A stretch of DNA of 64,000 bases. Source: a virus. Below are positions 5,917 through 42,249 of this stretch, piece by piece. The position numbers and the translations under genes are program-made. Under the pieces are notes generated by a model. The model was not told the DNA's origin. It saw nothing but the letters and a program-made list of their open reading frames with translations, and did not search any database. The stretch covers positions 43,323-107,322 of IMG/VR virus record IMGVR_UViG_3300003872_000001; one strand, given 5' to 3'. Within the stretch, counting starts at the first letter, position 1; every line of letters starts with the position of its first letter.

Positions 5917-6570
5917 AAGATTACTTCGTATCATCATAGCATGTAACATAGCTTTTACAGTATTAGTAGAAACTACACCAGTAGCATAGTTTGCTAGTAC
6001 TTTTTGACTAACAGAACCTTGGCTTATTAACAATTTAGTCATAGCATCTTTACTGCCTAAATCACCACCACGATCTTTCATAAGTTCTTGAGCACTCTCT
6101 TTAATACCCATACCAACTAATATTTGTAATTCAGGTAAAGTTAATTTGCTAGCTTTACTTTCTCCAGTAACTTGACCAGTTAATAGATCTATTGTTTTAT
6201 CATCCTTAGGAATAGATATTTTTTTAGTTAAGATTTGGCTAGCACGTCTTGTTGCTATATTAAGAACTAAATATTTATTTGGTGTAATGTAAGGATGTTT
6301 TTTAGCAAATCGTAAACGTTGAAATACTGGCTCACCTAACTCCTCTACTATTTTCATACATTTTTTAGTGTCTAATTTAATATCAGATCCATTAGGTGCA
6401 ACGACAGATAATTTAATTTTTCTATCTCTTAGATCTCTCATAAAGTTATCAAAATCTTTATTAGACATATTTTTAAATATAAGATCTTTATATAGTTTCT
6501 TATTCTTGGTACCAGCTATCTTTTCTATATAAGTAAGTATAGTTTGTTCAGCTTTTTTTCTATCGGCCAT
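5914..6570 (-). CDS. Virion RNA polymerase beta C-terminal subunit, phiKZ gp149-like
   Basis: RRASQILTKKISIP...DLLTGQVTGESKASKLTLPELQIL resembles the beta C-terminal switch region; 218 aa. Confidence 0.75.
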   Translation of the reverse strand: MADRKKAEQTILTYIEKIAGTKNKKLYKDLIFKNMSNKDFDNFMRDLRDRKIKLSVVAPNGSDIKLDTKKCMKIVEELGEPVFQRLRFAKKHPYITPNKYLVLNIATRRASQILTKKISIPKDDKTIDLLTGQVTGESKASKLTLPELQILVGMGIKESAQELMKDRGGDLGSKDAMTKLLISQGSVSQKVLANYATGVVSTNTVKAMLHAMMIRSNL

Positions 6571-6612
6571 TGGGATTCCTTATATATGATGTAATATATT
6601 ACATCATATGAT

Positions 6613-26817: not shown

Positions 26818-28804
26818 ACAGTCGTAGAATAGTTTCCGTAGATATTAAAAAGTAAGAGATTTACTGCACTTAGAAGCTTTTATATTACTAAAAAAGCTTA
26901 CTACCTTATTTATTGATAGTATAAAATAAATAAGGATTTAACATGAGTAATCTCAGATTCGATGTAGTCGGTAACAACGACTATTATATAACAGAACATT
27001 TAGAAATTGGTAAAAATAATGAAAAAGCTAGAAATCTTGTATTCGATAAAGATAAAGTTTTTATAACATTATTTGGTTATAGACACAAGGTAAAATTAGA
27101 ATGGCTTTATTGGTTAAGCTACTATAAACTAAATTTACCGAATAATTATGAAAGATATATTAGTGATATTAGATTTTATAGTTTAAGCAGAGATGGTAGA
27201 ACTCTTACCGATGACCATATAGTTTTATTTAAAAAGCCTGTTATAATAAAATATGGCTCTACTGTGTTTAGATTATTGGCAAGATTTCCTAATTACGCTA
27301 TATCTAAAGACGGAACTATTATGAACATGAAAACTAAGTTCTTTAAAAAGCCTAGTAGTAATGAAAAAAATAGATATTTAAGATCTAATATTATTGATCA
27401 AGCTGGACTTTATTCTAGTAACACTAGAGTCACACATAGATTAGTAGCACTAGCATGGGTTCCCAATCCTAATAACGATTTTATAGCTAGACCTATAGTA
27501 GATCACATAGATGGTAATAAAACTAACTGTCATGCCGATAACTTAAGATGGATATCGTTTTTAGGTAATAGTTTAGCAGCAGTAGATCAAGGTCTCAATA
27601 CTATAGCGATACCGGTACTTAGTAAAAATATAGATACGGGTGAGGTAGAAAAATGGGGATCTTTAACCAGGTTCACTGAAGCCAAAGGTAGGACGAGAAT
27701 AGATACTAATGCAGCTCCATTATATAAGTCTAAAGTATGGAAAACTCCTAATGGCGATTATTTACTTAAGTACTTAAGTGATTCCACACCTTGGGCTAAT
27801 AGTGAAGATATTAAAAACAATACCAATACTAAATTAACTATAATTATTAAAGATAAAACATTCACTATACATGGTCGTAACTCTTTGAAAGATTTTGCCA
27901 AGAAAGAATTTGATATAATTATACATGGTAAACAAAGTATAAATAAATCTATAAAACAATTCTTAGATAGATACATAGCTAAATATGATAATAATATAAA
28001 AATAATCATAGATAGACCTAAATACCAAAATGATTTAAATAAAATATTATATAAAGCTAAGAATTTAGTAACTGGTGAAGTGTTAATAAATAAAACTAGA
28101 AAAGAGTTATTAGAATATACCGGTATACCAAAATCATCTATAACTAAAAGCATAGCTAATACTGGATTATATTCTTACAATGATTGGGTGTTTACTACTA
28201 TGTATATAGACTTTCCTAAAGAGAAAGATGTTAAATTTGTTAAATATAATTATAAAATAAAAGTAACCAATACAAAAACCAATAAATCTGTTATATATGA
28301 TAGCTTAAGAAAAGCTTCTAGTGAATTAGACATACCTAGAAGAAAACTTAAAGCTATATTGAATAATACTAATAATATCTTTAGTGGACATATATTCACT
28401 ATGATATAAGTGCCCGTTGTAGAAGTAATTCTATAATGACAACCAAGCTAATTGCGGGAAGCCACTAAAGCTTATAACTACCACTTATAGATGGAAACAT
28501 ACTATAATACTCCAGCCGTAATAGAGGAACTAGGAGCATGGTAAAAACGTTATAAGATGTATATGGGTAATCAGCGCAGCGAAGCACCTTAAACAGCGAG
28601 AGCTATCCTGTATGGAGTGTGTGTGTTCAACGACTAACGGATTGATCACCGTGTAGGGCTCAAGTGAGTGGGTATAGAATCCCTTAAATCGAAATGCTGG
28701 GAACCTATCTATAAGGTTCTTGATATAGTCTCGTCATGCAGGGAAAGCCTGCAGCAGTTCATAAGAGAACGCGGTCAGTGTAACGAACTGATTGGAAGGT
28801 TTCG
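26818..28804 (+). ncRNA. Group I intron 1 (with HNH ORF) in the vRNAP beta' catalytic motif
   Basis: Exon ends in U (GGT) and intron ends in G. Core elements: P AATTGCGGGAA, Q AATCAGCGCAGC, R GTTCAACGACTA, S GATATAGTC. Removal restores GADFDG-DVVSFN. Confidence 0.9.
26943..28409 (+). CDS. Intron-encoded HNH homing endonuclease (NUMOD4-like/HNH_3 plus NUMOD1-like)
   Basis: FPNYAISKDG, THRLVALAWVPNP...VDHIDGNKTNCHADNLRW, C-terminal YDSLRKASSEL. Confidence 0.88.
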   Translation: MSNLRFDVVGNNDYYITEHLEIGKNNEKARNLVFDKDKVFITLFGYRHKVKLEWLYWLSYYKLNLPNNYERYISDIRFYSLSRDGRTLTDDHIVLFKKPVIIKYGSTVFRLLARFPNYAISKDGTIMNMKTKFFKKPSSNEKNRYLRSNIIDQAGLYSSNTRVTHRLVALAWVPNPNNDFIARPIVDHIDGNKTNCHADNLRWISFLGNSLAAVDQGLNTIAIPVLSKNIDTGEVEKWGSLTRFTEAKGRTRIDTNAAPLYKSKVWKTPNGDYLLKYLSDSTPWANSEDIKNNTNTKLTIIIKDKTFTIHGRNSLKDFAKKEFDIIIHGKQSINKSIKQFLDRYIAKYDNNIKIIIDRPKYQNDLNKILYKAKNLVTGEVLINKTRKELLEYTGIPKSSITKSIANTGLYSYNDWVFTTMYIDFPKEKDVKFVKYNYKIKVTNTKTNKSVIYDSLRKASSELDIPRRKLKAILNNTNNIFSGHIFTMI

Positions 28805-28963
28805 GACGTGGTTTCATTTAACCTTCTCTATACTGATGAAAGTATAGCTGAAATAAATAAACTACTTAAAAATAAAAAATTTTATCTAACAGGTAATAAT
28901 GACCTGATGTACCGAGTGAGTACAGATCCATTAGAGCTAGTATTAAAACATTTAACTTTTTAA
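28805..28963 (+). CDS. Virion RNAP beta' subunit, exon 2 (52 aa)
   Basis: Reads DVVSFNLLYTDESIAEIN...HLTF*, completes DFDGD, and gives a 534-aa spliced product. Not in the ORF track. Confidence 0.85.
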   Translation, partial: DVVSFNLLYTDESIAEINKLLKNKKFYLTGNNDLMYRVSTDPLELVLKHLTF

Positions 28964-32284: not shown

Positions 32285-32818
32285 CAACAGACATCCTATA
32301 AGAGAGTTATATTTCTTATAAGAATGTGATATGTAGATAATAAATAATATAGAATATTTTGAAATATCAGGATATTCCAATAATATAAAAAAGATTCTAA
32401 TAAATTTATTTATTATCACACATATCGTTTAGGTCCAGATTTACAGTAATGTAAATTGGTTATCTTTCTAATTGCGGGGAATCCTTAAAGTCTATAGATA
32501 CTACTTACATATGGAAACATGATGTAATACTCACTTCAGTAATGGAGATAGTGAGCATAGTAAAAACTCTATAGAATATGACAATAGGCAACCGGCGCAG
32601 CGAAGTCTCTACGTGACTCAGTCATACGAGATGTGTTCAACGACTATCCCTGTAACGGGAGTAGGGCTCAAGTGAGTGGGTATGAAATCCCTTAAATCGA
32701 AATGTTAGACACCCTATCATTATAAATGAGGGTGAAGATATAGTCTCGACATGCAGGGAAAGCCTGCAGCAGTTCATAAGAGAACGCGGTCAGTGTAACG
32801 AACTGATCGGAAGATACG
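32285..32818 (+). ncRNA. Group I intron 2 (ORF-less) in vRNAP beta
   Basis: AATTGCGGGAA, AACCGGCGCAGC, GTTCAACGACTA, AAGATATAGTC; U|...G| boundaries restore DDAKRSNFSTIMASHAIP. Confidence 0.88.
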
Positions 32819-33918
32819 CAAATTTCTCTACGATTATGGCGTCACACGCTATACCAATGAAGTCATCTAGTTCTTCTTATGTACGAACTGGTTATGAATC
32901 TGTGCTAGCATTAAGAGCTAGTAAAAAGTTTGTAATACATGCGGAGCAAGATGGAAAAATAACTGATGTTAGTCCACAGTACATTAAAGGTGTTTATAAG
33001 GACGGTACACAATTTAAATATAGTATTAAGAAATGGACTTCTAAAGAAGAGGCTGGCTCAACTTATACGCATAAAATGATACCTGCATTAGGCAAAAATA
33101 AAACATTTAAAACTGGTGATGCATTAGTATATGATCCTATCTTTTTTGAAAAAGATATATTCGATCCAGGTAAAGTTGTCTATAAGACTTCCACTAATAT
33201 GCGCATCGCGTTATTAGAAGACATTCAAACATTTGAGGACTCTTGTACTATAAGCAAAAAGATGTCTAAAAAAACAGGTATAGAAATTACAAAGGTAAAG
33301 TCATTTGTTTTAAATACTTCTGATGTAATAGCTAACCTAGTAAAAATTGGTAGTAAGATAAATGCCAATGATCCATTATTTACAATTGTAGATAAGTATG
33401 TAGCTCGCTCTGCTAAAACTTTAGATAAAGAAACATTAGAGTTACTTAAAGCATTAAAGAACAATAGTCCTAAAGCTAAATACAAAGGAATTATTGAGAA
33501 TGTTGTTATTATGTATAATGCAGAGCCGGATGAAATTTCTAAAAGTGCACAAGAACTTATAGATGCTAGTGATATTAGATTAAAAGCTAATAAAGGTTTT
33601 ATAGGGAAAGTTGATAGCACATATAGTGTTGCGGGAAGTAAATTGATGCCTGGTACTATGGAAATCAAAATATATATTATTACAAAAGAAAATAGTGGTA
33701 TTGGCGATAAGTTTATAGTTGGAGGTCAACTTAAGTGTACAGTTTCAGAGGTTGCTGATTATGAAATATATACAGCAGATACCAATACTGAAGTTGATAT
33801 GACATTTAGTATGAAGGCTATAAACGCCAGGATTGTTAATAGTGCTTTCATCACAGGTATGGCGGGTAGGGCTTTAGAAGCTCTGGAAAATAAAGTAATA
33901 CGGGAATATTTTGGTTAA
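32819..33918 (+). CDS. Virion RNAP beta subunit, exon 2
   Basis: VRTGYE, TFEDS, GDKF..GGQLKCTV, INARIV; spliced product 1384 aa. Confidence 0.88.
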
Positions 33919-40464: not shown

Positions 40465-40498
40465 TTGATTCTAGAAAAAATTAAGTACATAATATTAA
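40465..40498 (+). promoter_or_regulatory. Conserved phage promoter, copy 2
   Basis: TTGATT-ctagaaaaaattaagta-CATAAT-attaa. Confidence 0.7.
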
Positions 40499-40548
40499 TA
40501 TGAAGAGTATGTAATGTACTTGGAATATTTCAAGTTAAGGAGACAGAT

Positions 40549-40977
40549 ATGTCTATTGAATTCGATAAGGATAAGTTTGATGTCACAATATCAAATGGTG
40601 TGGCTAATATCACATATACAGATAAAGAGGCGTTCTTTAAGAACACTAAAATTCCTAAAAAGGTTCTTAAGGAAGTATTCGATTATGAGAATGAATACAT
40701 CCTGGCTGCAAACATAGAGGGTGCAAAGCAAGCCAAGAACTTGATGGGAGAAAACAAAAACCTAGATGAAGTAGTGACGGAACTTCCATTTTCACCATCG
40801 GCACGTGGTAAGGTTACGGTAGTAGGTAAACGATCACAAAAATTCCGAAGTCCAAAAGATGGTAGTGAGATTGTAAAATCCACACTAAGGACAATCGTTA
40901 AAAATCCATTCTTAAAAGTAAGTGACTCTAAGATAAAAGAACTCACCAAGGATATGACTGAGACACTTCTATCATAG
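40549..40977 (+). CDS. Hypothetical protein, probably early
   Basis: 142 aa with AAGGAG RBS, downstream of a conserved promoter. Confidence 0.65.
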   Translation: MSIEFDKDKFDVTISNGVANITYTDKEAFFKNTKIPKKVLKEVFDYENEYILAANIEGAKQAKNLMGENKNLDEVVTELPFSPSARGKVTVVGKRSQKFRSPKDGSEIVKSTLRTIVKNPFLKVSDSKIKELTKDMTETLLS

Positions 40978-41019
40978 TCCGTAAATTCTACCCAGCTATA
41001 GTTTACATATAGTATGGTT

Positions 41020-41320
41020 GTTTAGCTGCATAAGCCACTTGTTAAATCGTAAAAGAAAGAGTGCACATATCCTACAACTCTAGAAGTTTAGTAGAGATCA
41101 AGTGATTTCGAAATGATGAAGGATAAATCTTGTGTTTAGTCATAAGAAGATTAGACACAAGCAGTTCATAAAGAGAACGGATACTATGTAACGAATAGTA
41201 TCGAATACACATAAGATAGACCTTAGTTACTCTTTACTCTTAAGAGTAACTCAATAACCTATTGATAATACTCTACATTAGGGTTCTAAATAGGTAATAC
41301 TTAATACTGTAGGCTGCAGA
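41020..41320 (+). ncRNA. Putative novel structured ncRNA sharing peripheral domains with the group I introns
   Basis: ORF-free, multi-hairpin region. Modules at 41091-41115 and 41161-41205 match intron P7.2-like and P9-like segments with compensatory changes. Confidence 0.6.
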
Positions 41321-41337
41321 ATAAGATAAGTATACGT

Positions 41338-41371
41338 ATATACACTAGTAGCATATGCTACTAGTGTATAT
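41338..41371. terminator. Bidirectional terminator
   Basis: atatacactagtagc-atat-gctactagtgtatat followed by a T-run. Confidence 0.8.
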
Positions 41372-41379
41372 TATTTTTT

Positions 41380-42249
41380 TTAGTAGTCGTTAAAACCTAC
41401 TTTAGATGCAGTAACATTAGCGTCCGCTCCATCTTTATTAGGTACAATCATATCAGTGTCAGGTATTTTATTAAGTACACTTAACGCTGACAATGTTGTT
41501 TGTCCTAAGTCCAAAACATTTTCATTGTTCATAGTTATACCAGTCCAGTCAATAGAAAGTTCTTTACCTTCTCCGGCTGAATTCATATTCCTTTGCCCAG
41601 TTCTTTCGCCGTTTGATTTAGGCATCATATTAACTCTTAGCCAAGCATCAACTACAACCTTTTGAGTAATATCAGGTTCTATAAATAACACCGTACCGGT
41701 ATAAAAATCTGGAGTATAAATACCAATAGTATCCATATTTTTAATTAAATTAGATACTAATGGTTTTTTAGTATCAGGATCCATCATACCATATCGGATT
41801 AGAATATCAAAGAACTTAGTAATAGCTTTATTAGCTTTTTCTTTATAAGTTGTAGCTAATGAACTTCTAGCTCTTTTGACATCAGTTATTGACTCTTGTT
41901 GTTCACCGCCACCGCCAATTGGTGTTTCATCAAATTCAACTGTTAAACCTGAAGTTAAACCAGTTATAGTTAATGGATGAAGTTCTATAAGAGCTTTATA
42001 CGTAGCTATCCATTTTGCCGTGTCTTGCATATATTGAAAAAATCCAGGTGTTCGCAGAACGATCGGGATTACATTATTCGATACATATGACGCATTCGAT
42101 ATCCATTCGTCATATACTTTACCATCAGCAGCGATAGTACCTATCTTAGGCATATATCCTTGCTGTCCACCATCAACTAAGTTTGCGGTTGGTGCAGCTT
42201 CTGCAAAAAGTTTATTCTTTTCTAAAACAGCATTTTTTAATCTTGCCAT
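41380..42249 (-). CDS. Tail tube protein, phiKZ gp30-like
   Basis: 289 aa downstream of the sheath; ITGLTSGLTVE, YGMMDPDTK, TVLFIEPD, NMMPKSNG. Confidence 0.8.
   Translation of the reverse strand: MARLKNAVLEKNKLFAEAAPTANLVDGGQQGYMPKIGTIAADGKVYDEWISNASYVSNNVIPIVLRTPGFFQYMQDTAKWIATYKALIELHPLTITGLTSGLTVEFDETPIGGGGEQQESITDVKRARSSLATTYKEKANKAITKFFDILIRYGMMDPDTKKPLVSNLIKNMDTIGIYTPDFYTGTVLFIEPDITQKVVVDAWLRVNMMPKSNGERTGQRNMNSAGEGKELSIDWTGITMNNENVLDLGQTTLSALSVLNKIPDTDMIVPNKDGADANVTASKVGFNDY

Follow-up and report, generated by a model that had tools for sequence, protein, structure and literature searches.

A structured RNA of about 300 nt that follows a 142-aa gene in an uncultivated, intron-rich jumbo phage is, with high probability judging from its sequence, the shell of a group I intron of subgroup IA2 (T4 td/Twort type) that is dead for splicing. 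An ancestral IA2 intron would have lost P3-P8, P4-P6 and P7, including the guanosine-binding site, and would have retained its peripheral shell, namely P7.2 (loop AAGU), P9, P9.1 and P9.2 (loop GUAACGA), together with a 2-bp clamp between loops L7.2 and L9.2. Since the guanosine-binding site is gone with the core the RNA should be unable to splice, and nothing is present there that would need splicing. The account as a whole, in which the IA2 descendant occupies a 3'UTR, keeps its shell, has a selected fold and serves as a 3'-end domain, is put forward with slightly better than even confidence.

The window (the whole 64-kb stretch of DNA analysed here) comes from a 107-kb record that is estimated to be ~40% complete. 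It encodes a phiKZ-like tail sheath and a phiKZ-like 289-aa virion structural protein that is probably the tail tube; the nearest isolate is Bacillus phage AgentSmith, with only 37% identity in the 289-aa structural protein and, in a synteny comparison, a different gene order after the tube gene. The features of the locus are listed below, the bounds of the whole RNA being those of the initial annotation, whose coordinates and sequences proved accurate.

40549-40977, + strand: gene for the 142-aa protein, function unassigned (ORF list); the RNA follows its stop codon
41020-41319, + strand: whole structured RNA, ~300 nt
41024-41036, + strand: 5' motif UUUAG-CUGCAU, paired with 41312-41319 in the MFE fold; alternative partner GCAG at 41161-41164
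41066-41073, + strand: AUAUCCUA, probable relic of P7(5')/P7.1(5'); UAUCCU pairs with AGGAUA at 41120-41125
41094-41109, + strand: P7.2-like hairpin, 6 bp, loop AAGU at 41100-41103 (alignment of models R1/R2)
41110-41128, + strand: short 19-nt linker replacing P3', P8, J8/7 and P7', the site of the core deletion by comparison with ~95 introns
41129-41161, + strand: P9-like hairpin, 13 bp, loop AUAAGAA (MFE fold), where the resident introns have a GNRA loop instead
41164-41178, + strand: P9.1-like hairpin GUUC-AUAAAGA-GAAC, with one extra A relative to the family-wide GUUCAUAAGAGAAC
41180-41202, + strand: P9.2-like hairpin, 8 bp, loop GUAACGA at 41188-41194 (motif and model alignment)
41203-41210, + strand: GAAUACAC, corresponding to the GAAYA motif found after P9.2 in IA2 introns; identical in the L004 homolog
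41225-41295, + strand: two further hairpins (41225-41251 and 41257-41295) of the MFE fold, not conserved in L004
41338-41381, + strand: intrinsic terminator, 15-bp stem (41338-41371) and T-run, read from the sequence

Intron periphery without an intron core

Between the stop codon of the 142-aa gene (40977) and the terminator there is no + strand ORF of at least 40 aa, nor is there one anywhere in 40978-41380, as the initial annotation had held. Its statement that no gene is interrupted likewise stands, because the 142-aa ORF ends at the same C-terminus as its insert-free homologs; all homologs, at 35-70% identity, share this C-terminus (..TxxLLS/D stop). The description of the RNA as "free-standing", in contrast, was too strong. 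No promoter of its own was found, and the simplest reading is that of a 3'UTR of the 142-aa gene, a reading made probable by the placement of the RNA between the 142-aa stop codon and an intrinsic terminator; transcription would most likely proceed with the 142-aa gene up to that terminator. The strand agrees, in that the G-U pairs of P7.2 and P9 fit only the + strand. Four DNA sequencing runs of one study, probably derived from the source samples, contain zero variants within the RNA, and a sequencing-run lookup listed no RNA sequencing runs that contain its sequence.

Relatives of the 142-aa protein are few, the four best (P0002-P0005, on ENA contigs) being 67-70% identical. It has no Pfam family, PHROG family or ESM Atlas lead, and its AlphaFold model (pLDDT 73) has no fold match in the PDB, so that there is no sign of RNA binding by this protein. 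Logan contigs of the same samples contain, in other sequence contexts, look-alikes both of the terminator hairpin (41339-41371) and of the promoter-like stretch before the 142-aa gene (40465-40528), the latter with 9 differences in 64 nt; both look like regulatory cassettes that recur in this phage or in related ones.

Folding of the 311-nt RNA stretch yields an MFE of -74.8 kcal/mol, as compared to -58.4 +/- 4.6 for shuffled sequences (z = -3.54), and all the helices named in the initial annotation are present in this fold. One of these, a long-range closing stem, is found in the MFE fold but has no counterpart in the L004 homolog described below. The two modules said to be common to the RNA and both resident introns are also confirmed: module (i), TCAAGTGA..TCGAAATG, has exactly three sites in the window (28660, 32668 and 41098), as does module (ii), CAGTTCATA(A)AGAGAACG (28755, 32770 and 41162), and neither is found in dinucleotide shuffles. 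The introns that hold the first two sites of each are:

28384-28830 (end approximate), + strand: resident group I intron A, RF00028 49.2 bits over 28384-28754 (G000:71706-72076)
32404-32832 (3' end approximate), + strand: resident group I intron B, RF00028 74.6 bits over 32404-32769

The RF00028 gathering cut-off is 50 bits, just above the score of intron A; the Rfam run at gathering score on the whole window missed both introns, a more permissive run recovered intron B, and a genome search recovered intron A. A 488-aa ORF (26943-28409) with an HNH_3 endonuclease domain at residues 185-207 runs into intron A, and the ORF that follows intron B (32836-33918) gives a weak Pfam match to RNA_pol_Rpb2_6 (RNA polymerase Rpb2 domain 6). 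In both introns module (i) is located within the insertion between the P7 5' strand and P3' (P7.1/P7.2), and module (ii) lies past the end of the Rfam model (P9.1/P9.2).

The elements of the candidate RNA stand in intron order: a J6/7-P7 relic 5' of P7.2 (CCUACAACUCUA as against the usual ..CAACGACUA), then GUAG-P7.2, UCGAAAUG, the linker, P9, GCAG, P9.1, P9.2 and GAAUACAC, with UCGAAA after the P7.2-like hairpin at 41108-41113. The same order is seen in the 3' half of a td-like IA2 intron if P3'-P8-J8/7-P7' is taken out of it. Where the candidate has its linker, all of the ~95 other phage introns of the class, which were gathered by pattern scans and model search, have a GAUAUAGUC-type J8/7. 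The initial annotation had left the choice between an origin from an intron and a mere sharing of tertiary modules with one; in view of the collinearity descent from an intron is the better supported.

Absence of the core is evident at several levels. The core motifs AATTGCGGGAA, CAACGACTA and GATATAGTC, previously reported as missing, are indeed absent from 40978-41340, where their best matches have 2-5 mismatches and lie in unrelated places, and are present in both resident introns with 0-1 mismatch. P4 (AAUUGCGGG), the P7 5' strand (GACUA), J8/7-P7' (GAUAUAGUC) and the P3/P8 core are not found in the candidate. Nor did any known family match the RNA in the Rfam check that had been proposed: RF00028 gives no match at E <= 10 in 40960-41390 (431-nt search) or in L004:2900-3620, Rfam 15 (GOLLD, ROOL, HEARO, OLE, raiA etc.) gives zero matches at gathering score over the whole window, and at E <= 10 over the RNA only chance-level miRNA and snoRNA rows are returned, mostly on the terminator hairpin. 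Pairwise local alignment of the RNA to the introns gave meaningless output and blastn just short, weak matches, both being uninformative because the likeness is at the level of motif and structure.

The GAAYA motif is typical of the IA2 intron family (PMC4227781) and also of the introns compared here. Phage IA2 introns (T4 td, nrdB and nrdD/sunY; Twort orf142-I2; RF00028) have the same peripheral order and sequence and the covarying L7.2 x L9.2 pair, and their shared signature of GUAG-P7.2 (AAGY), UCGAAA, P9, GCAG, P9.1, P9.2 (UARCGA) and GAAYA is found in full in the candidate. Unlike these introns, the candidate is without P3-P8, P4-P6, P7, J8/7, splice sites and an interrupted gene, and fails the covariance model. 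The td intron has this short P7.2 too, and its L9.2 loop is UUAACGA; in the 2005 Twort crystal structure of Golden et al. (cited in PMC3984707) these insertions reportedly ring the active site. A special closeness of the P9.1 module to the introns of the window, as suggested in the initial annotation, is not upheld, since GUUCAUAAGAGAAC is conserved in many unrelated phage introns and therefore gives no sign of a special link between the RNA and the resident introns.

A homologous RNA and the probable rebuilding of its stems

An orthologous RNA (L004:2945-3560 of IMGVR_UViG_3300028534_000016) lies downstream of a 50%-identical ortholog of the 142-aa protein, within ~640 nt that have no ORF and end at a terminator, and its core is also absent. 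A covariance model built from the candidate alone recovers this homolog at L004:3069-3180, full length and with all four hairpins (34.7 bits, E ~2e-6 locally), at a place where Rfam gives nothing. ATATCCTA, GCTGCAT, TTTAGTAG, GAATACAC and TTTA before GTAG are found all five only in the candidate and L004, each of them in 0-3 of 95 other introns; GCTGCAT, the 5' motif, is in none of the 95 examined, and the 8-mer AUAUCCUA, identical in L004, is in three. The same locus, the same missing core and the same rare motifs therefore argue for descent of the two RNAs from one core-less ancestor rather than from two independent intron fragments. The core-less RNA would thus predate the split from the L004 phage, its stems having been rebuilt afterwards by compensatory change.

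Between the candidate and L004 identity is 81% over unpaired but 43% over paired columns, yet all aligned stem pairs still pair; the P9 position of L004 is occupied by a hairpin of 7 bp, in 4 pairs of which both bases have changed. When the L171 RNA described below is added, 98.6% of cells are paired with 14 pairs changed on both sides, as against 29-43% paired in a control in which the partner is slid by 1-3 columns, these counts being from an alignment of three sequences only that was fitted to structure by the model. The pairs of the P7.2-like hairpin are kept in all three RNAs. Rebuilding of the stems by compensatory changes since the L004 ancestor would place the fold under selection, and selection on the fold since loss of the core is considered fairly probable from these alignments. 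The compensatory pattern that had been claimed thus holds for L004, whose hairpins are kept in this way, but comparison to the resident introns shows only family-wide conservation of the loops. Since the loops conserved between the candidate and L004 are conserved in all family introns as well, part of the pattern is inherited.

The two RNAs share locus, four hairpins, rare motifs and missing core, but differ twofold in size (~300 as compared to ~640 nt). The L004 RNA has in addition a P7.1-like hairpin, a C:G instead of a U:A tertiary pair, and an adjoining endonuclease-like gene; the 5' and 3' parts are not conserved, and the 3' regions cannot be aligned. Two adjacent hairpins of L004 (L004:3257-3300 and L004:3310-3357) have the same 27-nt loop, differing in its last base, on completely different stems; AGGAUA and CAGCAC within this loop are the complements of UAUCCU and GUGCUG, both located in the 5' part of the RNA.

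A further core-less RNA of 239 nt is found between tRNA-Arg(tct) and tRNA-Asn(gtt) at L171:160-398 (IMGVR_UViG_3300042208_000006), with an identical copy in L280. Like the candidate it has P7.2, P9, P9.1, P9.2 and a U:A loop pair, without P3'-P8-J8/7 between them, and it gives no RF00028 match; unlike the candidate it is located in a tRNA cluster and retains a P7-like GACC/GGUC pair. Because its deletion boundaries differ and the rare motifs of the candidate are missing, the L171 RNA would be of independent origin. Its position in the tRNA cluster, from which it would probably be released by tRNA processing, is suggestive of stable RNA release. Its P9.2 is followed by a P8-like hairpin and then GGAUAGUC, as if intron parts had been rearranged. 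The T4 stable RNAs rnaC and rnaD were considered as kin of the L171 RNA, and show no convincing likeness to it by eye.

Closely related phages manage without the candidate RNA. The empty site of L005/L006, whose homologs of the 142-aa protein are 50% identical to that of the window, consists of the stop codon, ~8 nt and a terminator (similar, as read by eye, to that of the window) followed by the convergent tube gene, and L008, whose 142-aa protein is 37% identical to that of the window, is also without the RNA and has ~30 nt from stop codon to terminator. Identities of the 142-aa protein are 50% for window-L004, 50% for window-L006 and 72% for L004-L006, and those of the tube protein are 64%, 74% and 69%, respectively. 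The RNA-less L005/L006 are thus as close or closer to both of the RNA-bearing phages, and the RNA therefore would be dispensable, having been lost or moved horizontally; judged by these loci, it is an optional element. Two strict motif scans of 2.9 million IMG/VR contigs yielded only the contig of L004, apart from one ordinary intron and some fortuitous matches within coding DNA; among the matches listed for looser P7.2 patterns in IMG/VR almost only ordinary introns are found. Over 55 intron-bearing phage records every other match to model R2 is a normal intron with GAUAUAGUC, and isolate phages gave no blastn or tblastn match to the RNA, to the 142-aa protein or to the L171 RNA.

The contact between L7.2 and L9.2

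In 97 distinct introns, representing every intron in the fetched loci (L009-L259), the fourth base of L7.2 (AAGY) and the R of L9.2 (UARCGA) are U:A in 54, C:G in 35, U:G in 3 and other combinations in 5, some of the latter being mis-picked P9 loops. The complementary rule is thus followed by 89 of the 97, and 92 pair if U:G is counted. Since the loci were picked by the P7.2 motif alone with either Y allowed, this constitutes unbiased evidence for an L7.2-L9.2 base pair. The covarying pair adjoins an invariant G:C, which points to a 2-bp L7.2 x L9.2 tertiary contact in td-like phage introns, and the survey provides a clean comparative data set for it. The contact is presumably the tertiary pairing previously described for subgroup IA introns, and may correspond to "P11" in Jaeger, Westhof and Michel (1991); a literature search on P11, L7.2 or core-less introns returned nothing usable.

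The corresponding partners in the candidate would be U41103:A41191 and G41102:C41192. The covarying pair is thus U:A in the candidate, C:G in L004 and U:A in L171. All four introns and the RNA of the source record (G000) are AAGU/GUAACGA, and all five detected introns and the RNA of G001, the record of L002, are AAGC/GUAGCGA. Records G013 and G037 each mix U:A and C:G introns.

Competing origins and possible roles

The principal alternative, which we consider possible although clearly less probable than selection on the fold, is that of a neutral relic: an intron, or an intron carried along with a homing endonuclease, would have landed in a non-coding site with no need for splicing and be decaying there by deletion, its hairpins persisting through incomplete decay or through refreshment in patches by recombination with resident introns. 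The surroundings of the RNA are in keeping with such an origin. In L002/L004 the site beside the RNA is, from its sequence, a typical mobile-DNA hot spot, with an endonuclease-like ORF and a duplicated tube gene 3' end adjoining the RNA. The 526-aa ORF (L002:4911-6491, - strand), lying between the terminator of the RNA and the tube gene, has repeated DUF723/zinc-ribbon units and an endonuclease-like C-terminus, and looks like a free-standing homing endonuclease insertion; the duplicate of the tube gene 3' end that flanks it is ~75 nt (L002:about 6525-6600). The presence of the RNA varies among close relatives, the family is tiny, and the loop variants equal those of the resident introns. The genomes are moreover full of introns and fragments, with RF00028 hits numbering 4 in the 107 kb of G000, 6 in the 138 kb of G001 and ~18 in the 250 kb of G003 (the record of L011); some of them are tandem introns separated by a few tens of bases, and others are partial (e.g. 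G003:131-189 and 178418-178506). Against a neutral relic, 57% of stem positions are changed between the candidate and L004 with pairing intact throughout the aligned stems, whereas under unselected drift the paired fraction would be expected to fall to about a third to 40%, the level of the slid controls. Among the resident introns found, in records that are only 40-53% complete, none matches the P9.2 and P7.2 stems of either RNA, and recent patch conversion is therefore not evident; the shared rare motifs also argue for one old core-less ancestor. The RNA accordingly looks maintained rather than merely decaying.

Less probable by a good deal is a shell acting in trans, in which the L7.2- and L9.2-like loops or the whole shell would make contact with the resident introns, or with a protein that has affinity for their periphery, and in this way adjust the splicing of the intron-bearing genes, including an RNA polymerase subunit gene. 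Retained in the RNA are precisely those two loops that contact each other in real introns, and its loop variant is that of all resident introns found, in both G000 and G001. For the scaffold, decoy and trans-regulator roles proposed in the initial annotation, this match of loop variants is the one hint. However, these data are accounted for as well by pairing within a single molecule, the contact amounts to no more than 2 bp, and the uniformity within a genome is not general, as seen from the mixed variants of G013 and G037. Every resident intron has its own P7.2 and P9.2, and therefore nothing needs complementing; the relatives without the RNA also speak against this function. A closely allied proposal, a domesticated "intron shell" in the form of a stand-alone, core-free ring RNA acting through its intron loops on the resident introns or on a factor that recognises the periphery, is likewise improbable. 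If true, it would couple the splicing of essential genes (RNA polymerase subunit) to late-gene expression, and the independent L171 RNA would make such exaptation recurrent.

That the RNA is still a working group I intron, or another ribozyme whose core has escaped recognition, or that it belongs to one of the known families of large RNAs, is very unlikely: the closing stem does bring both ends of the RNA together, and the RNA ends in a G (41319), but there is no match to RF00028 or another Rfam family at E <= 10, the motifs of P4, P7 and J8/7 are missing, the protein encoded upstream needs no splicing to be complete, and only ~20 nt separate 41319 from the terminator.

For the preferred reading, a splicing-dead IA2 descendant in the 3'UTR with a selected fold, the role may be that of a 3'-end domain, compact and with a tertiary fold, which would protect the mRNA upstream of it or build up as a stable RNA. 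The protective role is a guess of low confidence, and plain hairpins without conserved loops would suffice for it. Group I introns are otherwise known as ribozymes that work or as sequences lost in their entirety. If the fold is truly selected, the RNA would show, on a small and tractable scale, how an RNA module is put to use again once catalysis is lost, in a case limited to two members in uncultivated phage, and it would offer structural biology a minimal version of the IA2 peripheral ring provided by nature.

Among bacterial group I introns fragmentation "has not been specifically reported" as of 2008 (PMC2504315). Fragmented bacterial group II introns are likewise non-autonomous pieces of self-splicing introns in non-coding DNA, although of another class and regarded as debris. 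IStrons, which combine a group I intron with an IS200/605 element, have an IA2-type periphery in which foreign sequence is joined after P9.2 at GAAYA (PMC4227781). They keep an active ribozyme and transposase ORFs, whereas the candidate has neither core nor ORF and is therefore not an IStron.
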